Origin: a virus
Direction: 5' to 3' (one strand)
DNA length: 64,000 nt
IMG/VR virus record: IMGVR_UViG_3300035034_001897
Coordinates: 14,947 to 78,946 of that record
In this document: in pieces, positions 14,581 to 62,090 of the stretch
Position numbering within the stretch: the stretch's first letter is position 1
How the letters are laid out: every line of letters begins with the position of its first letter
Notes under the pieces: generated by a model
What the model saw: the letters and a program-made list of their open reading frames with translations, nothing else
What the model was told of the DNA's origin: nothing
The model's database searches: none
Program-made: the position numbers and the translations under genes

Positions 14581-15070
14581 TAGAAATTACAACATCAATT
14601 CACAAACGTCAGCAACAAATTCGTGCCAATATAGTGAAAGGATTAAAGACTCCTACATTTAGTGGATTTAAGTTAGAGAACAAATACAACTATAAGGTTT
14701 ACAGATTTCAATAGAGAATAAGCAAGGATCTACACGTAAATGGAAAGATGGAGATAAAGAAGGTTCTACGTTAATGCACTATGATTATGGATATATTAGA
14801 AATACTGTAGGAAACGATAACGATCACGTTGACTGCTACATTAATTCAAAAAATATAGTTGATCAAGTCTTTGTTATTCATCAAAATAGACCTAAAACTG
14901 GTCAATTCGATGAAGATAAGGTAATGTTAGGTTTTGATAGTGCAGACGAAGCTAAGAGAGCTTATTTAACTCATTACGATAGCGAAAAATTCTTTGGATC
15001 GATGACTGAAATGACCCTCGATCAATTCAAAAGCAAAGCGTTAGGTAAAAAAAATCGTAAAATTCAATAA
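14577..15070 (+). CDS. Inorganic-pyrophosphatase-like (InPase) domain protein with leader; 1-nt frame break at ~14694
   Basis: Adding one base at tataaggt gives MIEITTSIHKRQQQIRANIVKG...GLQISIENKQGSTRKW...MHYDYGYI..DNDHVDCY...FDEDKVMLGF. This is the InPase pattern of phage polyvalent proteins. Confidence 0.75.
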
Positions 15071-51302: not shown

Positions 51303-51761
51303 ATGTTTCAATCAACAAAATTAGAAGATGGGTTTAGCGCTTGTTTTCGTCAATGGAAAGCAACAACAACGCACTGTAAACATCTTCACGGATATGCACT
51401 TTCATTTAAGATAGTGTTTGAAGGAGAGTTAGATTACAGAAATTGGATAGTAGATTTCGGAGGATTTAAACGAAGCAAAGTGTCCATTGATGGATTTTCT
51501 CCTAAAGAGTGGTTCAAGTATATGTTCGACCACACTACCGTTATATCAAATGATGATCCTGATCTAGAGACATTCAGAATGTTAGAGTCAACTGGAGCCA
51601 TTCAATTGAGATTAGTTGATGCTGTAGGCTGTGAAATGTTTGCAAAACTAGTGTATGACAAATTGCAAGACTGGGTTGAGTTAGAGACTAAAGGAAGATG
51701 CAGAGTCGTAAGTGTAGAGTGTAAAGAGCACGAAAAAAATTCTGCGATTTATGTTGGATAA
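51303..51761 (+). CDS. queD: 6-carboxytetrahydropterin synthase
   Basis: CKHLHGY, IVDFG, FDH, GCEMFA and EHEKNSA motifs. Confidence 0.9.
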   Translation: MFQSTKLEDGFSACFRQWKATTTHCKHLHGYALSFKIVFEGELDYRNWIVDFGGFKRSKVSIDGFSPKEWFKYMFDHTTVISNDDPDLETFRMLESTGAIQLRLVDAVGCEMFAKLVYDKLQDWVELETKGRCRVVSVECKEHEKNSAIYVG

Positions 51762-51786
51762 TAGATATAAAGGTAGTATCTTTATG
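51753..51786 (+). promoter_or_regulatory. Class A promoter copy
   Basis: gttggataatagatataaaggtagtatctttatg. Confidence 0.75.
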
Positions 51787-51808
51787 TAAAGGAAATGACA
51801 ATCATATT

Positions 51809-52251
51809 ATGGAAGAGATTCAAAAAGGAAATAGAGCAAGATTTGATCAGATCAAGAATCAAGTTGAAGATAGTTTTGAGAAAGGCAAAGAAATGCCAAT
51901 CGGCACTATTTCAAACGGACGCAAGAAAATCGCTAAGGTAAATGGGTGCCAGTTACGAAAGAGAAGGAGTCTATTAAAATAGACACTAACAGATTCTTTG
52001 ATCAAGTGTTTAGTGGAGAAACTATTAGATCTAAAAAAGACTACGAATCGACATTTAAGTCATCGATTGGATTAGATGACGCTGATTTAGAAATGCAACT
52101 TCGATTAGGTTTTGAGAAATATAAAAAAAGTAAATCGCACGACTATCACAGACTTCAATCTAAACCTTTTAGTAATCATAGAGATGCACTGATAAAATTC
52201 TTTAAGCACGGAAGAGACAAATTTATTAACAAGCAGGGAAAGAAACTTTGA
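51809..52251 (+). CDS. Leader-bearing hypothetical protein; 1-nt frame break at ~51936
   Basis: MEEIQKGNRARFDQIKNQVEDSFEKGKEMPIGTISNGRKKIA[K]GKWVPVTKEK..., nearly identical to KGKEMPVGTVSNGRKKMPNGSWVPV in 3579. Confidence 0.7.
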
Positions 52252-52299
52252 CATAAAGGATCAAATCAAAAAATAATCGTAAATTTAAAATCGGAACAA

Positions 52300-52644
52300 A
52301 TGAATATTTTAGAATCGCAATTAAGTAAAAACGGATTTATCTACAATTTAATACAAAGAGAAACTTTACAGGACAATAAGTCTGTCGCTATATACTCTCA
52401 ACACACTAAAGATCAACCTACTACAGAAGTGATAGCTTATGAAGTATTTATCATACCTCTTCGCAAAAAAGATGTGATGACTCCAACAAAAATACTACTT
52501 CCAGCTGGAGAAGTTTATCCAGGAAATGAATACTTTGGATCATTTGCTAAATCAATTTATGCAAGCAATGATCCCCAACAAGCTCTTAATAGAGCACAAC
52601 AATATTTTGAACAATTTAAAACTCATATAGTAAATGGATCATAA
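52300..52644 (+). CDS. Hypothetical phage protein
   Basis: ORF track; YEVF...EVYP..E.FG pattern. Confidence 0.6.
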   Translation: MNILESQLSKNGFIYNLIQRETLQDNKSVAIYSQHTKDQPTTEVIAYEVFIIPLRKKDVMTPTKILLPAGEVYPGNEYFGSFAKSIYASNDPQQALNRAQQYFEQFKTHIVNGS

Positions 52645-53388
52645 CAAGAAACAGCCAATAGTAGAAGCGTATCCTTGTCTACAAAGTGAGGGCTCCCTAA
52701 CAGGAGTTCCTCATTTTCTTATACGCACAACTGGATGCACATTAAGGTGTCAATTTAGCGAAACAGATTTCTGTGATAGTTGGTACACAAGTTGGCATCC
52801 TGAAAAAGGAGAATTTACATTGCAAACAATATGGGATATGTATGAAAAATATCCTCATATCAAACACGTAATGATTTCTGGAGGATCTCCTACAATGCAC
52901 GCAGAACTGCTTAGAGAACTTACAATCGTTAGTAGTAGAGACTACAATATGCATATCACATTAGAAACAGAAGGAAGTTTATTTGTAGAAGGTTGTGTAA
53001 TTGACCTATTATCGCTTAGCCCTAAATTTAGTAATTCATTACCTAGAATAGGAACAAAGACTCCTAATGGTAAAGATGTGACTGCAAAACACTACGCTCG
53101 TCACGAAAAACATCGCAAAAATTACGATGCAATGAAAAAATGGATTAGTTCTGCAGCAGACTATCAACTCAAACCAGTATTCTCATCAATAGAGGATATG
53201 GATGAGATAGAGCAAGTAATGAATGAATTAAATGTTCCTAAAACTAAAACTTGGTTGATGCCTGCAGGATCTATACCATCAGAATTAGCTAAGAAGAGAG
53301 TTGCTCTAATGGAATTTTTTGGAAGAACGGCTTCAACTACACCGATCGCATACATATAGTAGCTTATGGAGATCAAAGAGGAGTTTAA
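52634..53388 (+). CDS. queE: 7-carboxy-7-deazaguanine synthase (radical SAM); 1-nt frame break at ~53318
   Basis: LQSEG, GCTLRC..FCDS, ISGGSP, LETEG and LSPK motifs. The -1 frame restores the canonical end WKNGFNYTDRIHIVAYGDQRGV. Confidence 0.9.
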
Positions 53389-54013
53389 TGTCTCGTCAGG
53401 CATATATGCGATAATCAATCCTAAAGGTAAGATTTATATAGGCGAATCTGTTAATATACAGAAAAGACTATCTCAATATGCGAATGGTCATTATAAGAAG
53501 CAATGGAAGTTAGCCAATTCCATCAATAAGTATGGGTGGGAATCTCACATAACAATTGTATTACAGTATTGCAATGTATCTCTACTAAAACAAAAAGAGA
53601 GATATTTTGAATTGAAATATAAATCTTTAAGTGCCTTAGGTCTAAATCTAAAGCTAACTGGAATAGGAGAGATTAAAACACTAGATTCAAGTGCAGTTAG
53701 AAATAATAAATCTAAAGGACAGTTAGGAAGAACCCAATCTCTGTTTACAAAAAACAAACTTTCAAAGCAGAGATTAGGTGTTAAAAAATCTAAACAGACG
53801 AGGATTAATATGAGTAAAGCTAAACTAGGAGTGTCTCAATCAAAAACTCATATTGAGAAAATAGCTGCAGCTAAGCATAAAAAGTGTAAAATTAATGGAG
53901 TTTTGTATTCTAGTTTAAAGCAAGCATACACTCAACTTGAAATACCTAAAGGCACTCTTATTCACAGAGTTCATAGTAAAAATAAAAAATTTGTAAATTA
54001 TAAACTTATATGA
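53366..54013 (+). mobile_element. Free-standing GIY-YIG homing endonuclease with NUMOD3-like repeats
   Basis: SGIYAI...KIYIGES.NI.KR; repeated S..T+.+MS.A+LG units; inserted between queE and folE. Confidence 0.85.
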
Positions 54014-54648
54014 AGAATATACAATTATTGAAACGTGCTAATGGAAATCTTGTTCGCACAAAAGAGCAAAAAGAGCAGATGATCGAAGAGATGACTGTTC
54101 ATTATGGTAATTTTTTAACTGCAGCAGGTTATGATTACAAAGCAGATCCTAATACAGAAAACACTCCACGTAGATATGCAAAATCATTTGTTAACGACTT
54201 GATTGCTGGATGTTTAGAGCAGCCTCCAGAAATTACAGCATTTCCTAGTGAAGGCTATACTGGAATAGTGTTAGAGAAAAACATCCCCTTTGCATCAATG
54301 TGCTCACATCATAATCGTGAAATTGTAGGTAAAGTGCATATTGCATATATTCCAGGCAAAACTGATGGTACTGTAATAGGATTATCTAAGATGAACCGAT
54401 TAGTTGAACATTACTCAAGAAGACCTCAGATTCAAGAAGGTTTGACTGTTCAAATACATTCACATCTCGATAAAGTGTTGAAGAATAATAGAGGAGTTGC
54501 TGTTATCATAGAAGCTGCTCACGGATGCGTTTCTTGTCGTGGTGTTAAGCATAAAGGGGCGTCAATGTCAACATCTCAACTTTCTGGATATTTCTGGACT
54601 AATGAGATAGGAACTAGAGCTGAACTATTCAACTTAATAGGTAAGTAA
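54010..54648 (+). CDS. folE: GTP cyclohydrolase I
   Basis: TPRR, SMCSHH, IGLSKMNR, RRPQIQE and HGCVSCRG motifs. Confidence 0.95.
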   Translation: MKNIQLLKRANGNLVRTKEQKEQMIEEMTVHYGNFLTAAGYDYKADPNTENTPRRYAKSFVNDLIAGCLEQPPEITAFPSEGYTGIVLEKNIPFASMCSHHNREIVGKVHIAYIPGKTDGTVIGLSKMNRLVEHYSRRPQIQEGLTVQIHSHLDKVLKNNRGVAVIIEAAHGCVSCRGVKHKGASMSTSQLSGYFWTNEIGTRAELFNLIGK

Positions 54649-55166
54649 TGAAACTATTAATCAGTGAACATAAGATTAAAGGCTGTTGTAAGAGAATTGC
54701 GAGAGAAATCTCGCAAACTTACAGAACATCAAAAAATGAGATCAATGGTGTGGTACTAATTGGTATTGCAAATGGTGTACTGCCTTTTCTGGTAGATATG
54801 AGTAGAGAAATTGCAGCAGACGTACCAGTAGAAATTGATTTGGTTCATTGTAGCTCTTATACTGGAATGTTTAAGAAAGGTAAAGTTAAATTTTCTAAAC
54901 TTCCATCAACAGATTTGACCAACAAATTAGTGATTATCGTTGATGATATAGTAGATAGTGGAGACACTATGACTGCAGTTAGTCATAAATTATTGAAATT
55001 TAAGCCTAAAGCAATTCAAACGTGCTGCTTACTTAAACGTAAGAGTTGTAAATCGTATCTACATTATTTAGGTAGAGTGGTTGATGACGGATTATGGGTT
55101 ATAGGGTATGGACTAGACGATGACGGATTAAAGCGTAATATGAAACAAATTTATATAAAACAGTAA
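54648..55166 (+). CDS. Purine phosphoribosyltransferase (HPRT-like)
   Basis: SSY loop, IIVDDIVDSGDT PRPP-binding motif, VIGYGLD. Confidence 0.9.
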   Translation: MKLLISEHKIKGCCKRIAREISQTYRTSKNEINGVVLIGIANGVLPFLVDMSREIAADVPVEIDLVHCSSYTGMFKKGKVKFSKLPSTDLTNKLVIIVDDIVDSGDTMTAVSHKLLKFKPKAIQTCCLLKRKSCKSYLHYLGRVVDDGLWVIGYGLDDDGLKRNMKQIYIKQ

Positions 55167-55169
55167 AAT

Positions 55170-55709
55170 ATGTTAAACGGAAAACGGTTAGTTGAGAGAG
55201 AAATTATCTCTGGTAAAATCGAACAAGAAAATGTTAGTCAACATGGAATTGATCTTAATGTCATTGAAATCCAACAAATTTTTGGAGGAGGTGTTATTCC
55301 TCAAAAAGGTAAAACGACTTTAGGCAAGTGTGAGAAGGTTGAGTTAACTTTTGATAAAGAAAACGGAACTAATTTTTGGCTACTTCGTCCTGGAGTTTAT
55401 GACGTCAAATTTAAGCAAGGATGTAGCATTCCTGACGATATGATGATGTTGATTAGACAGAGAAGTAGTCTGTTAAGAAACGGAACAATTCTTCATAGTA
55501 GCGTATTTGATGCAGGATTCAAGACAAAAAATATTGGAACTGTAATGGTAGTTAACTGCCCAATTATGATTGAGTATGGAGCTCGAATTGCTCAAATATA
55601 TGGACACGCTTGCGATAAAGTTGAAAATCTTTACGATGGACAATGGCAAGGAGATTCTCAAAGAACAATTCCTCAAGTAACCGAAGACGAAACTCAAAAA
55701 ACATCATAA
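55170..55709 (+). CDS. Trimeric dUTPase/dCTP-deaminase-family protein
   Basis: GIDL, QRSSLLRNG, FDAGF, GARIAQ and YDGQWQ motifs. Confidence 0.85.
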   Translation: MLNGKRLVEREIISGKIEQENVSQHGIDLNVIEIQQIFGGGVIPQKGKTTLGKCEKVELTFDKENGTNFWLLRPGVYDVKFKQGCSIPDDMMMLIRQRSSLLRNGTILHSSVFDAGFKTKNIGTVMVVNCPIMIEYGARIAQIYGHACDKVENLYDGQWQGDSQRTIPQVTEDETQKTS

Positions 55710-56596
55710 TGAAAACAAACATCGTAATTAAATTTGCAGTAGAAGGCATTCACGCTTGGCCAGGAATTGTCGAAAATCTTCAATTAGTAGAAAGAGTAGG
55801 ATTCTTACAATTCCCTCACAGACACACCTTTACATTTAAAGCAATTAAGTCTGTGTCACACGACGATCGTGATATTGAAATCATTGACTTGAAAAGAGGA
55901 ATGATTCACTTTCTTCATAATCAATATGGTAAGGCACCTAGTGAAAAGATTGAAGGATATACAAGTCATTGTGATTTCGGATCAATGTCTTGTGAAATGA
56001 TTGCAAAACAAATGGTTAAAATGTTTGATTTGCAGAGTTGTGAGGTGTTAGAGGATAATGAGAATGGTGCAGTCGTAGAAAATCTAAAACCTGCAGGACT
56101 GAAAACTCTACAAGAGTATTTAGTAGATCCTACACGAAAAGGTAAGGGAAGTAATATAGTGTTCATTTGCGGTCCTTTATGTAGTGGAAAATCATTTACT
56201 GCAAAAGCTATGTCTAATCATATTCGATCTGAAAAAGACAATGTACCAGTAATTGAAGTTGAGATTTCAGATATTGTTAAATCGATTAAGAAAGCGACTG
56301 AAAGAAAAGATCTTCAAGGATTTCCTGAATTAGATGAGCAAATTGTCAAAGAAATCGATCGAGTAGCAGATGTTAATATAACTAGTGCAATTGTTGTATC
56401 AGGAGCTCGTCAAACGTCAATACTTCAAGCATTTCCACTAGCAAGTGCAATTTGGATTGAAGTGCCAGATATAATTAGAAAATCACGATATGGAGATAGC
56501 GACAAAGATCAAAGACAAGACTTTGAAACTGCAAATCGCAGAGATGAAGAGTTAGGTTTAACTGAATTAAAACAATACATATTTACAAAAATCTAA
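55709..56596 (+). CDS. QueD-paralog T-fold protein (DpdL-like CDG decarboxylase) fused to a P-loop nucleotide kinase
   Basis: Start set at the TAATG ATG 55709. EGIHAWP, LQFPHRHTF (LxxxHRHxF), SCEMIA and EDNENGA, then ICGPLCSGKS Walker A, VSGARQ and a lid-like R..R segment. Confidence 0.72.
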   Translation: MKTNIVIKFAVEGIHAWPGIVENLQLVERVGFLQFPHRHTFTFKAIKSVSHDDRDIEIIDLKRGMIHFLHNQYGKAPSEKIEGYTSHCDFGSMSCEMIAKQMVKMFDLQSCEVLEDNENGAVVENLKPAGLKTLQEYLVDPTRKGKGSNIVFICGPLCSGKSFTAKAMSNHIRSEKDNVPVIEVEISDIVKSIKKATERKDLQGFPELDEQIVKEIDRVADVNITSAIVVSGARQTSILQAFPLASAIWIEVPDIIRKSRYGDSDKDQRQDFETANRRDEELGLTELKQYIFTKI

Positions 56597-56613
56597 CATA
56601 AAACAAATTATAT

Positions 56614-57402
56614 ATGGACTTTTACGTAATTCCTCCAGTTAAAAATTTAGACCTAATGCATAAAGGAGATCGGTACTTTTGCTTAGCTCAATTGTATAAA
56701 AAACATAAATCTTATAGAGATTTTTTTAAAAATTTATCTAAAGATTGTTGGATAACTCTAGATTGTGGAGTAGGAGATCACGAACCGGTAACAGAAGATG
56801 CTCTATTCGAGGTAATGCAAGATTTGATGCCAAATGAAGTCATTCCATTAGATGTGTTATTTGAAGCAAATACTACTGTTCAAAATGCAACCAGATTTTA
56901 TCAAAAAATGGTAAGTCACAACTTAGATGATAAAATAGAAATACTTTTCTGTCCACAAGGCGACACTCAAGATCATTGGCTACAAGCATATGTTTGGGCA
57001 CTAGAACAAGATTGGATCGCAACAATAGGTTTAAGTAAAATTGCAATTCCAAATGCGTTTCTAAGAGTAACTAATGACGTAGGAATAATGGAAGGTCGAC
57101 ACAACTGCTTTAATTATTTAAAGGTTAATGATTTACTACATAAACCATTACACCTTTTAGGGATGGGGAACCCTACAGAATTCGCATATTACAAACAATT
57201 TGAAGAAGGACGATTTATTCGTAGTAGTGATAGCTGTAATAGTGTCTGGAGTGCAATGAATGCTCTAGATTGGAAGAGAGGTCATTACGACAGAGTCCCT
57301 ACACCAAAAGATTACTTTGATCGAAATGCATTAACAGACAACGATCAAAGAAGATTTTTGATTGATGAAAATATCGATTTTTTAATAGGTTCAGTACGTT
57401 AA
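56614..57402 (+). CDS. TGT-fold 7-deazaguanine transglycosylase, DpdA-like (probably DpdA3-type)
   Basis: ITLDCG, FCPQG, LHLLG and IRSSDS motifs of the TGT barrel; cluster context. Confidence 0.68.
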   Translation: MDFYVIPPVKNLDLMHKGDRYFCLAQLYKKHKSYRDFFKNLSKDCWITLDCGVGDHEPVTEDALFEVMQDLMPNEVIPLDVLFEANTTVQNATRFYQKMVSHNLDDKIEILFCPQGDTQDHWLQAYVWALEQDWIATIGLSKIAIPNAFLRVTNDVGIMEGRHNCFNYLKVNDLLHKPLHLLGMGNPTEFAYYKQFEEGRFIRSSDSCNSVWSAMNALDWKRGHYDRVPTPKDYFDRNALTDNDQRRFLIDENIDFLIGSVR

Positions 57403-57447: not shown

Positions 57448-57954
57448 ATGGAAATATTAGAATTTATTCAACAAGACAAATACTTCATTGCAGATGACAA
57501 CTCTGTAATATGCACCAACAATCAAATGAGTATCACAATTGATGTTGGTGGATATTATCCAGAAATAGTTCAGAGCTTAGATGTAACTAAAGAGATGATT
57601 AATGATGCGTGCTTTATGAGTGTGAGTCAGTTTACTAAAAAGTATTCAGACAAAGTAAAGCCGAACAATCCACTATCATCTAAAATGGTATTTCACTCTC
57701 TAAGAGATTTAATCGTTGATGAGAAGATGCCAGTATATAAGCGCAAAAAGAAGAGTAAAAAAACAAAAAGTATTAGAGAGAAAAAACCAACTTACGTTGT
57801 AGTTGACGATCCTAGTGGACAGAAACCGATGACTAGGAAGGAGCAGGTCAACTACTACTTACAGTTAGGAATTGAATCTGCAACAGAAATTGCCAACCTT
57901 ATTGGCAGTAATCCATCGTACGTATCTCAACTTATCAAAAAAATCAATGGATAG
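57448..57954 (+). CDS. Protein with C-terminal HTH
   Basis: SATEIANLIGSNPSYVSQLIKK. Confidence 0.6.
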   Translation: MEILEFIQQDKYFIADDNSVICTNNQMSITIDVGGYYPEIVQSLDVTKEMINDACFMSVSQFTKKYSDKVKPNNPLSSKMVFHSLRDLIVDEKMPVYKRKKKSKKTKSIREKKPTYVVVDDPSGQKPMTRKEQVNYYLQLGIESATEIANLIGSNPSYVSQLIKKING

Positions 57955-58579
57955 CAGATTAAAAAAAATTGCTGGAGATTTGTTAGACAAAGATTTTAGT
58001 CAACACGACGAAAATCAAATAAAGTCTGAACTACAATTATTTATCAAAAACGAAGGTGGAGAAGATTTATTGATCGATGATGAGTTTACTACTCTAATAG
58101 AACTTACTTGTGTGTTTGGAGGATTTGATTTTGACGAAACACTTCATCAAGTTAATGACATACTCAATTCACAAGCTCCTACATACAAGAGAACAGGCAA
58201 AGTGCTCACTCCCAAGAGTAATAATAAACATAAAAGCATTATACAGAAGATAGGTGATGATATTTGCAATATGCATTTAGATTTGCATTGGGAATTTAAA
58301 GATAAAGGTATTTGCTTTATAGATCGAGTGAATGTAGTATTCTCGTTTGAGCATCTTCGTCAAATAGAAGGAATGCCGAATGAGTATAGTGGCAATGTGA
58401 TTCTTAACCGAATAAAAACTCAACAACAGTTAGAATCTACGATCGATCCTCGATATATCAATAAGAAGTGGGTATTCTTAGGAAAACATAATAGATGTGA
58501 TGGTAGATACTTCACAGTAACTGAATTAATGGATTTGATATCTAATCGTAAAATAATAACATTCGATCAATATGAGTAA
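57947..58579 (+). CDS. Hypothetical protein
   Basis: Start set at ATG 57947 (MDSRLKK). Confidence 0.6.
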   Translation: MDSRLKKIAGDLLDKDFSQHDENQIKSELQLFIKNEGGEDLLIDDEFTTLIELTCVFGGFDFDETLHQVNDILNSQAPTYKRTGKVLTPKSNNKHKSIIQKIGDDICNMHLDLHWEFKDKGICFIDRVNVVFSFEHLRQIEGMPNEYSGNVILNRIKTQQQLESTIDPRYINKKWVFLGKHNRCDGRYFTVTELMDLISNRKIITFDQYE

Positions 58580-61500
58580 ATTTCAAGTGTGGATGCACAA
58601 CAACTTTATAGATTTTGAAGAACTGTCTTTAAATACCTATAAAACGTCAATTGGTAAAGTATATGTGTTGCCATATAAAGAGTGTTTAACGTCAGTAGAG
58701 GGAGAGGTAAATTTAATATTAACGTATGATATCTGTGAAAGAATCCTCAATCAAACGATTGATTATGTAGCGTTTATGTTTGGAGACGATTTTTTCTACA
58801 CTCCAACCAATAAAATCACAGCAATTAAACTTACTCCATTCAAATATATTGGATTATATGAAGGATACTTACCAAAAGACACTTTAACGCATTCATTTTT
58901 AGGACTTCACGGAAGATATGAGTTGATGAATGGAACTAGAGATTATAAAGATTGGTGCAATAAAGCTACATTTTTACAATACAATACTTTAGGTATATGT
59001 GAAAAGAATACATTAGCTGGAACCTTACCTTTTCAAATACAATGCAATAAAGCAAAACTCAAAGCGATAATAGGTTACACTGCAGAGGTAGAAAATATGG
59101 ATGGTTTGAGATACGACCTGAAATTGTATTGCGTTGAGTATATTGGATGGAAGAATCTTCTTGCAATTAATAAAATCATAAACATTGATCAAGAAGGATA
59201 TATAGAAGAGGTGCAGATTGCTGAACTATTAGAAGGTCTTTGTGTAGTAGTTTCACCAGGAACGCACGTAAATAAATCAATGCTAGTAGCGTACAAAAGA
59301 AGTGCTGACAAATGCTTATTTCAAATTACTACAAATGAATTTACATCAGACAGCAAAGATAAAGATGCGTTAGTATCAATGAAAGATTATATCGATCATT
59401 ATTCAGAAGTCGTTGACTGTGTTTTGATTAGTGATGCGTATTGCCTTGATTATGAAGATGTTCACGTTAAAGATATTTTAAATAAACAAGGGAATACTAA
59501 ATTTACAAACTCTACAGAAAATCACTACCTACGTAGTTTTGAAGAAATTGTTGGAGAGTTTGAGCAGCTTTTTGATCCTAATGATGAAAGATTTGGTCAA
59601 ATATGGAATAAAGGTCTTCAAGGAATAAAGTGGATCACTACAAACTGCAATTATCAAATCAACACAAAAGAGCTGTTTCTCCCTAAGTATGAAATGACTC
59701 AAGAAGAGATTGTTGAGTACGGAACGTCAGATAGAATGTTTGAAGTATTAATTTATGACGGACTTGCTGACAAGTTTAATGAAGATATAAATGGACCAAA
59801 TGGCGATCAGGCATTTGATGAGTTGAAAGAGCGAATTGAAATGGAGCGTGATGTAATCACTAGAGGAGGCTTTATCGACTATTTTCTAATTCTATGGGAC
59901 ATTGTTAATTGGTGTAGAAAAGAAAATATACAAGTAGGTCCAGGTAGGGGTTCAGCAGCAGGATGTTTAATCTCATATACATTAGGAATTGTAAAAATTA
60001 ACCCTCTTGAGTTTGGATTAATTTTTGAACGCTTCTTAAATGAATCACGTATTACCAGCGAATTGCCTGATATTGACTTAGATTTTGCGTCAGACAGAAG
60101 AGATGATGTGATTGAATATATGAGACAGCGTTATGGCTCAGAGTATGTATGTAGAGTTGGCACTTACGGCACATTACAAATGAGAGGTGTAATCAAAGAA
60201 CTTGCACGAGCATACAATTATAACGGAGAATACAACCTTAACTTCTTAACTTCATTGATTTCGAGCAATGACGATTGGAGTCATTTATTTCAAGATGCAC
60301 TAACCAATCGTGCTCTAAAGAACTTAATTGAAGACAATCCAGATATCGTATATGATAGCAATATTATACTCAATGCTATCAAATCAAAAGGAATGCACGC
60401 TTGTGCAACAATCATTGTTCCTAAATTGGTAGATGACGAAGGTCAACCATTATCAATATATCAACAGATTCCTGTACGAATTGATGATGGAGTGTTGGTG
60501 AGTGAGTGGGAAGGTGATATTATGGCTGATGCTGGATTCTTAAAAGAAGATATTTTATCAACTAAACAAATGGCTAAGATTGGTAAAATCTTTGATTTAG
60601 TTAAGGAAAGAATTAATATTCAGCTAGATATGGAAGAAATTCCATTAGACGATGATGCTGTATATAGCTTATTTAAGCAAGGATATAATCAAGACGTATT
60701 TCACTTTGGTTCAGTTGGATTAACGAACTATCTTCGTCAAGTAAAACCAGACAATATTGATGAGTTAATTGCTTGTATTGCACTATATAGACCTGGTGCA
60801 ATGGCATCAAATGCTCACATTGACTATATAAAACTCAAAAAAGGAGAGATTGAACCTATCTATGATTTTCAATTACAAGGAGTAACACAAGATACGTACG
60901 GATTGTACATTTACCAAGAGCAAATTATGAAAGCGGTGCAAGTGTTAGGAGACTTTACGTTAGCAGAAGCAGATGGAGTTAGAAAAGCGATGGGAAAGAA
61001 GATTCAGTCTAAAATGGATGGATATAAAGTGCAGTTTGTAGATAAAGCAGTTGAAAAAGGGTGTGAAGTTAGTGAAGCAGAAGGAATATGGAATAAGATG
61101 GAGGTGTTTGCTGGATATGGATTCAACAAATCTCACGCAGCAGCATATAGTGTAATTGGTTACTATTGTAATTGGCTAAAACATTATTATCCACTTGAAT
61201 TCTGGACAGTAGCATTTGAATTTGCAGATGACAAGAAGATAATGAATTATGTTAATGAGATTAGTAAGATGGGTAATATCCAGATTGTATCTCCAGACAT
61301 AAATAAAAGTGAATTTGAGTTTCGATCAGATGCAGACGCTAATAAGATATATTGGAATCTTAGTAGTATAAAGTTTGTGGGAGCAGTTGCTTCACAAGAA
61401 GTAATAAATGAACGTGCAAAAAATGGAAAATATTTTAGTATTGAAGAGTTCGTTGAACGTACAGAAGGAAAAGGTGTAAATAAAAGAGTTGTTGAAAATC

Positions 61501-62090
61501 TAATAATTGCAGGATGTTTTGATGAAATGTATAAGATCAAAACGGTTAGTGATAGGTTTGTAGTAATGAATAAGTTCTATGAGACAAGAAAAGAAGACAT
61601 TCCTAAACAATTTATAGATAACAGATCAACCGATCATTACTGGTCAATCAAGCAGAGTGATGTTAGTAAGTTAAGTAACTTAGACTACACTAAACTTCTA
61701 CACGCATCAATATTCAAATCACACATAAAAGATTACGTATCGTCTGAGGAGTTTATCGAATTAGAGTGTGGAGAGAAGAAGGGTCCAGTTAAAATTATTG
61801 CAGGAATGATTGAAGAAATAATTGTTCGTAAAACGAAAAAAGATCGCAAAGAATATGCTGTAATTACACTTCAACAAGGAGATAGTCAGTCGTCAATTAG
61901 AGTGTGGCCACAACAATTATCTAATGAAGGAAACGATCCTAGATTAATCCCTTTACAGCTTCTAATTAAAAATCAAGAAAGTAGGTTAGCTATATTTAGA
62001 GGAGAGGTTAAGTTCAACTCGTACACTAACGGAAACGAGATGGTTTTATCAGATAGGTTGAGTGGTCCTATTGTAGAACTTTTTCGATAA
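58572..62090 (+). CDS. dnaE: Family C DNA polymerase (Pol III alpha-like)
   Basis: PHP domain, GPGRGSAAG, FERFLN, PDIDLDF, ALYRPG, YQEQIM, YGFNKSHAAAY, C-terminal OB fold. Confidence 0.95.
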   Translation: MSKFQVWMHNNFIDFEELSLNTYKTSIGKVYVLPYKECLTSVEGEVNLILTYDICERILNQTIDYVAFMFGDDFFYTPTNKITAIKLTPFKYIGLYEGYLPKDTLTHSFLGLHGRYELMNGTRDYKDWCNKATFLQYNTLGICEKNTLAGTLPFQIQCNKAKLKAIIGYTAEVENMDGLRYDLKLYCVEYIGWKNLLAINKIINIDQEGYIEEVQIAELLEGLCVVVSPGTHVNKSMLVAYKRSADKCLFQITTNEFTSDSKDKDALVSMKDYIDHYSEVVDCVLISDAYCLDYEDVHVKDILNKQGNTKFTNSTENHYLRSFEEIVGEFEQLFDPNDERFGQIWNKGLQGIKWITTNCNYQINTKELFLPKYEMTQEEIVEYGTSDRMFEVLIYDGLADKFNEDINGPNGDQAFDELKERIEMERDVITRGGFIDYFLILWDIVNWCRKENIQVGPGRGSAAGCLISYTLGIVKINPLEFGLIFERFLNESRITSELPDIDLDFASDRRDDVIEYMRQRYGSEYVCRVGTYGTLQMRGVIKELARAYNYNGEYNLNFLTSLISSNDDWSHLFQDALTNRALKNLIEDNPDIVYDSNIILNAIKSKGMHACATIIVPKLVDDEGQPLSIYQQIPVRIDDGVLVSEWEGDIMADAGFLKEDILSTKQMAKIGKIFDLVKERINIQLDMEEIPLDDDAVYSLFKQGYNQDVFHFGSVGLTNYLRQVKPDNIDELIACIALYRPGAMASNAHIDYIKLKKGEIEPIYDFQLQGVTQDTYGLYIYQEQIMKAVQVLGDFTLAEADGVRKAMGKKIQSKMDGYKVQFVDKAVEKGCEVSEAEGIWNKMEVFAGYGFNKSHAAAYSVIGYYCNWLKHYYPLEFWTVAFEFADDKKIMNYVNEISKMGNIQIVSPDINKSEFEFRSDADANKIYWNLSSIKFVGAVASQEVINERAKNGKYFSIEEFVERTEGKGVNKRVVENLIIAGCFDEMYKIKTVSDRFVVMNKFYETRKEDIPKQFIDNRSTDHYWSIKQSDVSKLSNLDYTKLLHASIFKSHIKDYVSSEEFIELECGEKKGPVKIIAGMIEEIIVRKTKKDRKEYAVITLQQGDSQSSIRVWPQQLSNEGNDPRLIPLQLLIKNQESRLAIFRGEVKFNSYTNGNEMVLSDRLSGPIVELFR

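Follow-up and report, generated by a model that had tools for sequence, protein, structure and literature searches.

A small kinase accompanies the transglycosylase DpdA3 in phiST-type 7-deazaguanine modules and hints at base replacement at the nucleotide level

How does a virus come to replace every guanine of its DNA by a 7-deazapurine? Three groups of phages that encode the transglycosylase DpdA3—those of phiST, CP220 and immuto_2-6A—replace 100% of their G. The question is raised anew by a cluster of 7-deazaguanine genes in the IMG/VR virus record IMGVR_UViG_3300035034_001897, a linear record of 78,946 bp that is 76% complete (CheckV) and stems from an uncultured phage, known as a metagenomic contig. 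The window, meaning the whole stretch of DNA analysed, comprises 64,000 nucleotides of this record (positions 14,947 to 78,946), and the cluster occupies positions 51303 to 57402 of the window. An original prediction, made from the sequence alone, had named queD, queE and folE, an HPRT-like phosphoribosyltransferase (PRTase), a dUTPase/DCD-fold enzyme, a kinase-linked QueD paralogue (DpdL) and a DpdA-like gene; Pfam, PHROG and fold comparisons find each of these, all on the + strand. It had also proposed that the PRTase and the kinase together turn the deazaguanine base into a nucleotide before replication. Comparison across related loci alters this picture: the kinase, and not the PRTase, is the conserved extra part of the deazaguanine gene set and a core partner of DpdA3, and it hints that the base is made as a free nucleotide before the DNA is copied.

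The last gene of the cluster (56614..57402, + strand) encodes a DpdA3-type transglycosylase of 262 residues with a minimal tRNA-guanine transglycosylase (TGT) barrel (phrog_20335, E 4e-70). Against gp042 of Cellulophaga phage phiST the protein shows 46% identity across 98% of its length; about as close is a protein encoded by MA9V-3, a Chryseobacterium phage. The AlphaFold model of the window protein (predicted local distance difference test, pLDDT, 95.8) matched bacterial, archaeal and murine TGT in Foldseek, with E-values of 2e-7 to 2e-6, a probability of 1.0 and template modelling (TM) scores of about 0.6; with the phiST match, this bears out the TGT-fold, DpdA-like assignment made earlier. 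A profile of the DpdA3 alignment retrieved no TGT from among the solved structures, and hhalign gave no alignment with the DpdA of phage 9g. Across 33 sequences, three aspartates (D50, D80 and D206) never vary; presumably they lie in TGT-like motifs (LDxGxG and RSxDS), judging by motif resemblance. The window protein is acidic (pI 5.3, net charge -10) and does not have the zinc-binding Cys/His subdomain with which the superfamily binds polynucleotides: a conserved Cys cluster is lacking, and the chain ends soon after the barrel.

The system to which this DpdA3 belongs is that of phiST, in which all dG is replaced by deoxy-7-deazaguanosine (dDG) and of which gp042 (CGPG_00065) is the founding DpdA3 (PMC10516641). 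There, gp040 (CGPG_00067) is DpdL, a QueD paralogue in which the CxxxHGH motif is replaced by LxxxHRHxF (PMC10516641). The phiST genes run queD, queE, folE, the MazG-like gp039, dpdL (gp040), an ‘ATPase’ (gp041), dpdA3 (gp042), a small open reading frame (ORF) and a DNA polymerase III (Pol III) alpha gene. The window has queD, queE, folE, an NTP pyrophosphatase, dpdL, kinase, dpdA3 and Pol III alpha in the same order, neither has QueC, and the DpdL motif of the window reads LQFPHRHTF. The identity to gp042, the TGT fold, the LxxxHRHxF motif and the synteny with phiST together place the cluster of the window in the published QueC-less dDG system. The module is therefore a phiST-type QueC-less DpdL/DpdA3 dDG system, for which dDG is the predicted base of the virion DNA. 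It differs from phiST in that DpdL and the kinase are one protein, in that the NTPase is of the DCD/dUTPase fold whereas that of phiST is MazG-like, and in the presence of an HPRT-family PRTase, a GIY-YIG endonuclease and small ORFs. The system itself is of a known kind, which the window varies by fusing DpdL to the kinase, by a DCD-fold replacement and by an embedded HPRT.

The fusion protein consists of a DpdL domain with a QueD-like T-fold, followed by a linker (55709..56143, + strand; phrog_17812, E 4e-19), and a C-terminal P-loop domain with the fold of nucleoside monophosphate (NMP) kinases (56144..56596, + strand; PF13238, AAA_18 type). The stop codon of the DCD-fold gene overlaps the ATG at 55709 in a TAATG junction, so that the fusion most likely starts there and is 295 residues long, not the 317 of the first reading. 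In its model (pLDDT 88.8) the N-terminal half has the QueD fold and the C-terminal half the NMP-kinase fold. Foldseek matched the former to E. coli QueD (4ntk) and the latter to the AMP-bound adenylate-kinase-related protein 3lw7 and to adenylate, UMP/CMP and dTMP kinases (E 8e-6 to 7e-4). The P-loop reads GPLCSGKS, and an alignment of 25 kinase sequences retains GxxCSGKS, DIV(K/R), GxRQ and the lid arginines R..R(Y/F), motifs which may be read as NMP-binding and lid sites. The claim of a QueD paralogue joined to an NMP-kinase-like domain thus holds, the kinase fold being real by both model and motifs.

A single protein joins DpdL and the kinase in the window and in 19 fetched loci. In a quick tree of DpdA3 these 20 loci split over two separate clades, each well supported, and the fusion may still have arisen only once. 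In most lineages the two are separate genes. Another locus (L029:6998-8062) encodes a DpdL of 354 residues with a long extension at the N-terminus, where Pfam gives weak zinc-finger and deaminase-like matches, all under the family cut-offs. Pfam scans of three neighbouring ORFs (c120, c54 and c62) and of the N-terminus of the MA9V-3 DpdL protein gave no matches.

How general is the association of kinase and DpdA3? Seventy-five IMG/VR loci with relatives of DpdA3 were fetched and annotated by tblastn, blastp and clustering, and the kinase was counted with a hidden Markov model (HMM) in the 71 of them whose sequence upstream of DpdA3 reaches at least 1.5 kb, a distance of up to 3 kb being accepted. 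An AAA_18-type kinase lies within 3 kb of DpdA3 in 67 of the 71; three of the remaining four have an AAA_28-type P-loop protein and one has no kinase. The order DpdL, kinase, (FolE), DpdA3 recurs across the fetched loci. At 17 phage 9g-like control loci, neither type of kinase was found within 10 kb of DpdA1, and the annotated 9g genome agrees. The sole exception among the 71 (L045:8818-10705), which sits on a long branch of the tree, has FolE2 (PF02649), a PRTase and DpdL, and neither kinase type within 3 kb of its DpdA3. A prediction of the complex between DpdA3 and the kinase domain scored 0.01 and was counted neither for nor against binding.

The DpdA3 proteins of CP220 and immuto_2-6A were not found by tblastn from the window protein; they were reached through that of locus L076 (26–33% identity). 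Campylobacter phage CP220, in which 100% of dG is replaced by dADG, has DpdA3 flanked by a protein with HD-phosphohydrolase and AAA_33 domains and by an AAA_28 P-loop protein. Flavobacterium phage immuto_2-6A (100% fdPreQ1) has a PRTase, FolE, a DUF4494 gene, a PRA-PH-type NTP pyrophosphatase, a small ORF, DpdA3, a further small ORF, a PurN-like formyltransferase, an AAA_28 kinase-like gene and QueF, with Pol A further on. The formyltransferase is DpdN, and QueC is also listed for this phage (PMC10516641). Both clusters resemble the window in that DpdA3 is flanked by a P-loop gene resembling small-molecule kinases and by an NTP hydrolase, and immuto_2-6A also in having a PRTase beside FolE and a polymerase downstream; they differ from it in that they contain no DpdL, that their kinases are of AAA_28 or AAA_33 type, and that immuto_2-6A has QueF. 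BLASTP detected no similarity between the window kinase and the kinases of CP220, immuto_2-6A and BSTP10, which argues that different families of small kinase have been recruited beside DpdA3. In CP220 the gene immediately upstream of DpdA3 is gp055 (L078:2368-3399), in which an HD phosphohydrolase and an AAA_33 kinase-like domain are fused, so that nucleotide hydrolysis and phosphorylation are tied to DpdA3 by a fusion of a second kind.

In the study that defined these phage systems (Cui, Hutinet et al., NAR 2023), gp041 (CGPG_00066) of phiST is described as having no homologues in other deazaguanine phages and is assigned no role, and neither ‘kinase’ nor ‘phosphoribosyl’ occurs in the text (PMC10516641). 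The literature found contains no paper on a role for a kinase or a PRTase in phage deazaguanine pathways, and the near-universal kinase partner of DpdA3 is new relative to the searchable literature.

The PRTase fares differently from the kinase when related genomes are compared. Encoded at 54648..55166 (+ strand), it is an accessory 6-oxopurine phosphoribosyltransferase of the HPRT family (PF00156, E 7.5e-20), whose start overlaps the folE stop in the same TAATG manner as at the DCD/DpdL junction and whose end lies three bases upstream of the DCD-fold gene. This tight packing favours the route of the original prediction, in which the PRTase would join 7-deazaguanine or 7-carboxy-7-deazaguanine (CDG) to phosphoribosyl pyrophosphate (PRPP), the kinase with host ribonucleotide reductase (RNR) and NDP kinase (NDK) would yield 7-deaza-dGTP, and DpdA3 would be secondary. 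So does a precedent: in Streptomyces tubercidicus, whose tubercidin pathway is likewise QueC-less, CDG is joined to PRPP by the PRTase TubE and decarboxylated afterwards, as the nucleotide (PMC6112128). That pathway shares with the window a QueC-less FolE/QueD/QueE route, a purine-type PRTase and decarboxylation to an unsubstituted 7-deazapurine nucleotide; it differs in that the product is a ribonucleoside antibiotic, the decarboxylase is the UbiD-type TubF and not the T-fold DpdL, and there is no TGT-fold enzyme, TubE having been compared with the window PRTase by description.

The sequence of the window PRTase points in both directions. It is full-length and about 35% identical to enterobacterial Hpt; 63 sequences of solved structures match it, nearly all of the HPRT/HGPRT family, the best being Salmonella and E. 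coli Hpt (E 1.5e-19). The PRPP-binding motif reads VIIVDDIVDSGDT, a match to the type I PRT family, and D103, W150 and GYGLD with D157 align to residues of Salmonella Hpt. We take D103 to be the general-base aspartate (E. coli D107, human D137) and W150 the aromatic stacking residue. The general-base aspartate of HGPRT works through N7 of the purine, an atom absent from 7-deazaguanine, and its retention with the rest of the HGPRT active site weighs against a 7-deazaguanine substrate. TubE, likewise, did not accept 7-deazaguanine (PMC6112128). At the position of the O6-binding lysine (E. coli K135, human K165), however, the window enzyme has R131, within LLKRK; this residue is still basic. The divergence of the protein makes an altered specificity possible. 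Its close relatives are only two sister-phage proteins, and to cellular Hpt it is no more than 37% identical, on which grounds a recent host origin was rejected.

The distribution of the PRTase also speaks against that route. A PF00156 gene is present in only 9 of 41 related records, in 5 of the 13 that are at least 90% complete (it is absent from the other 8), and in none of five genomes that are 97–100% complete and hold FolE, QueD, DpdL, the kinase and DpdA3. The kinase, by contrast, accompanies DpdA3 nearly everywhere, DpdA3, the universal glycosidic-bond enzyme, being itself in all loci by construction. The co-occurrence that the original prediction had put forward as a check of its route therefore splits, with the kinase upheld and the PRTase not. 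Furthermore, no RNR is encoded in the record (76% complete), and a distantly related PRTase adjoins FolE in immuto_2-6A, a phage whose final base is fdPreQ1. The TubE precedent makes a PRTase route possible chemically, but its absence from complete relatives means that it is not the general mechanism; as the step from base to nucleotide the PRTase is unlikely, and the route as first drawn is improbable.

What, then, might the PRTase do? It is optional, and most likely, as far as its relatives and gene context indicate, recycles the guanine released by the base swap. Each swap frees one guanine and FolE consumes GTP, which together suggest such a recycling role; the overlap with folE here and the position of a PRTase beside FolE in a phage with a different base fit guanine recycling best. 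In one clade (L023:4231-4815 and relatives) a non-specific DNA/RNA endonuclease (PF01223) lies just upstream of a short PRTase, a position that fits the salvage of products of host nucleic acid breakdown.

A second group of enzymes linked to DpdA3 would act on nucleoside triphosphates. In the window this is a DCD/dUTPase-fold (d)NTP pyrophosphatase-like enzyme (55170..55709, + strand; PF22769, E 1e-12), for which, among solved structures, the archaeal-type dUTPases 9w59 and 2yzj are the best relatives. A deaminase function was set aside, on motif grounds only: as we read the alignment, the position of the deaminase glutamate is not Glu. The DCD-fold gene lies upstream of DpdL in 29 loci, and in phiST-type loci a MazG-like gene takes the same slot. 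In three complete genomes the MazG-like gene adjoins FolE, with DpdL, the kinase and DpdA3 located elsewhere. A further connection is made by P0016, a metagenomic protein of 379 residues in which DpdA3 is fused C-terminally to PF18909, the N-terminal domain of dATP/dGTP diphosphohydrolases (E 1.5e-28). A genome search for PF18909 gave no matches anywhere, control genomes included, and is uninformative; no fusions of DpdA3 of at least 460 residues were found, which is weak evidence.

These associations suggest a mechanism. FolE, QueD and QueE make CDG from GTP, as is established for these families. DpdL, the proposed decarboxylase of CDG, is read in the published model as acting on the free base (PMC10516641). 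The linked NTP pyrophosphatase would supply dGMP, and DpdA3 would swap guanine for the deazapurine on this free guanine deoxynucleotide, forming the glycosidic bond. The kinase would then phosphorylate the exchanged nucleotide, host NDK would complete the triphosphate, and the adjacent polymerase would build fully substituted DNA from it. Where a PRTase is present, it would convert the released guanine to GMP, feeding GTP back to FolE and pulling the exchange forward. The nucleotide-level route that the original prediction proposed thus gains comparative support through the kinase beside DpdA3, the linked NTP pyrophosphatases and the P0016 fusion, and loses it through the PRTase.

Several observations speak for such a route: the linkage of kinase and NTPase, the 100% substitution in all three characterised DpdA3 phages, and the acidic, zinc-less DpdA3. 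Two published ones can be added. DpdL and DpdA alone gave no dDG in E. coli, and the authors proposed that additional enzymes may be required; the cytoplasm of cells infected with CP220 reportedly contained ADG nucleoside (PMC10516641). The first is a reconstitution that had no kinase. Pre-replicative replacement itself is well known: T4 makes hydroxymethylcytosine (hmC) DNA with the dCTPase gp56, gp42 and the dNMP kinase gp1, and the Z-genome phages use MazZ, PurZ and DatZ. Like the proposed set, these systems combine a dNTP pyrophosphatase, an enzyme that alters the base at the dNMP level and a dNMP kinase near the replicase, with complete substitution. They differ in that the base-altering enzyme of the window would be a TGT-fold exchanger, unprecedented on a mononucleotide, and in that its role is read from the genes. 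That the window holds a phiST-type dDG system working by DpdA3 exchange on the nucleotide and by the kinase, with the PRTase as optional salvage, has in our view somewhat the better side of an even chance. A pre-replicative route is favoured at about even odds. The more specific proposal—that DpdA3 is a nucleotide-level base exchanger and not a DNA-modifying enzyme, working with a dNMP kinase, a dGTP-clearing pyrophosphatase and sometimes an HGPRT cycle from guanine through GTP to CDG—falls a little short of an even chance.

The published model reads the same genes otherwise. In it, DpdA3 swaps every G for 7-deazaguanine in newly replicated DNA; the kinase would be a DpdB-like helper or a GMP-type kinase serving the GTP supply of FolE, the DCD-fold protein a dUTPase and the PRTase a guanine salvage enzyme. 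The DpdA enzymes tested, bDpdA of bacteria and the phage proteins DpdA1 and DpdA2, all place the base in DNA; the authors assume as much for DpdA3, their view being one of post-replicative insertion (PMC10516641). The TGT fold of DpdA3 agrees with that model, as do the dUTPases that are the nearest solved relatives of the DCD-fold protein, the only dUTPase-like gene in the record. Phage 9g, in which substitution is partial, also has dpdA beside a polymerase, so that the adjacency of the polymerase does not discriminate between the models. The bacterial Dpd system, too, pairs a TGT-fold DNA transglycosylase with an ATP-using partner; its bDpdA modifies less than 0.1% of Gs, against 100% in the DpdA3 phages (PMC10516641). 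On the other side, the partner in the DpdA3 loci has the small fold and the motifs of NMP kinases, not those of a DNA-dependent ATPase or a ParB-like fold, and DpdB is not known to be an NMP-kinase-fold protein. A kinase is nearly always beside DpdA3, neither type was found at the 17 DpdA1 control loci, differing kinase families have been recruited in the DpdA3 lineages, and PF18909 is fused to one DpdA3. The acidic character of DpdA3, its lack of the zinc subdomain and the failure of DpdL with DpdA in E. coli also tell against the published model. On balance the published model is unlikely to account for the cluster, though it keeps a substantial share of the probability.

A number of points weigh against exchange on the nucleotide. 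The characterised members of the TGT/DpdA superfamily all act on a polynucleotide, and none is known to act on a mononucleotide. The bacterial DpdA needs the ATPase DpdB (PMC10164549), which leaves room for reading the P-loop partner as a helper at the level of DNA. The DpdA1 controls span few independent lineages, the P0016 fusion comes from one metagenomic gene call, on a contig of 5.4 kb, and one of five complete relatives has no NTPase of the families searched. The DCD-fold protein, as the only dUTPase-like gene of the record, could be an ordinary phage dUTPase. With the record 76% complete, a QueC or RNR gene may sit in the missing part. Finally, the roles given to DpdA3, the kinase and the PRTase are putative and drawn from comparison.

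Exchange on the nucleotide could also take place in a different order, in which DpdA3 (or, where present, the PRTase) attaches CDG, and DpdL decarboxylates the resulting nucleotide and passes its product straight to the fused kinase. The authors of the phage study remark that the base inserted by DpdA3 may be CDG, from which both dADG and dDG derive (PMC10516641), and in tubercidin synthesis decarboxylation follows formation of the glycosidic bond. The fusion of DpdL to the kinase in 20 loci would also be explained, as fusions often join successive steps, and QueD-fold enzymes bind substrates that carry phosphate. The published reading of DpdL as a free-base enzyme, and the separate DpdL and kinase genes of most lineages, stand against this order. 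We regard it as distinctly unlikely.

If DpdA3 does act on the free nucleotide, it would represent a new type of reaction in the TGT superfamily, catalysed by the first TGT-fold enzyme to act on a mononucleotide, and the pathway would be a new kind of pre-replicative replacement of a base throughout a genome; it would also offer an enzymatic route to 7-deaza-dGTP analogues. If not, the cluster is a further member of the phiST-type systems with an accessory for guanine salvage. The activity of DpdA3 has never been reconstituted, the published trials in E. coli having been unsuccessful (PMC10516641), and the comparative data name a concrete candidate for the missing component, a small protein of NMP-kinase fold, with the linked NTP pyrophosphatase as a second. 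The question of pre- versus post-replicative modification thereby becomes testable with few enzymes.

The genes that supply CDG complete the module. QueD, the 6-carboxytetrahydropterin (CPH4) synthase, is encoded at 51303..51761 (PF01242, E 4e-13; phrog_2389, E 1e-41), the radical SAM enzyme QueE, 7-carboxy-7-deazaguanine synthase, at 52634..53359 (PF04055, E 1.4e-8; phrog_2076, QueE-like, E 2e-37) and FolE, GTP cyclohydrolase I, at 54010..54648 (PF01227, E 1.8e-46), all on the + strand. The motif of the window QueD is CxxxHGY and not CxxxHGH, a tyrosine replacing the second zinc-binding histidine; this HGY form is in the majority in related loci, with 23 of 35 QueD ORFs against 4 with HGH. 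The original prediction had found neither queC nor queF in the window and had called for a search for queC in the rest of the genome. Across the whole 78.9-kb record, QueC (PF06508) and QueF (PF14489) gave no match, so that the reported absence extends to all 78,946 bp of a record that is 76% complete. QueC is also missing from all 39 related records with DpdL and DpdA3, among them 12 that reach at least 94% completeness.

The record has a G+C content of about 34% and its genes are nearly all on the + strand; megablast and blastn against the phage collection gave no matches. The module forms a tightly packed operon between a DnaB-like helicase and a replicase of the Pol III alpha type (58572..62090, + strand; PF07733, E 1e-61, and PF17657, E 5e-45), which follows after two ORFs; phiST, too, has its Pol III alpha downstream of dpdA3. 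The replicase is a single gene of 1172 codons in the window and two genes in phiST; in many other DpdA3 loci a family A polymerase comes after DpdA3. The two intervening ORFs (168 and 235 residues; 57448..58579, + strand) have no significant Pfam family and no assigned function, with matches only in the closest relatives (L003 and L004). Between queD and queE lie three small ORFs of 57, 101 and 114 residues (51809..52644, + strand) with no match in Pfam or PHROG and no assigned function, which are probably outside the pathway; of the 101- and 114-residue ORFs, which were compared, only the latter had a match, in locus L004.

A GIY-YIG homing endonuclease gene (53366..54013, + strand; PF01541, E 3.6e-8) is inserted between queE and folE. 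ORFs of the same sequence cluster as this gene, or a LAGLIDADG-type ORF, are found at differing positions within the module in other loci. In the clade of loci L056–L074 a DUF4494 gene directly follows DpdA3 (L056:4931-5359), and immuto_2-6A has a DUF4494-annotated gene (L079:2529-2726) between FolE and the PRA-PH hydrolase, making this family a recurrent neighbour. In a T4-like clade (loci L039–L055), the genes after DpdA3 are one resembling glycosyltransferases (PF13712), one that matches DUF366 weakly and one of Cpn10 type; the first of these raises the question of an additional DNA modification.

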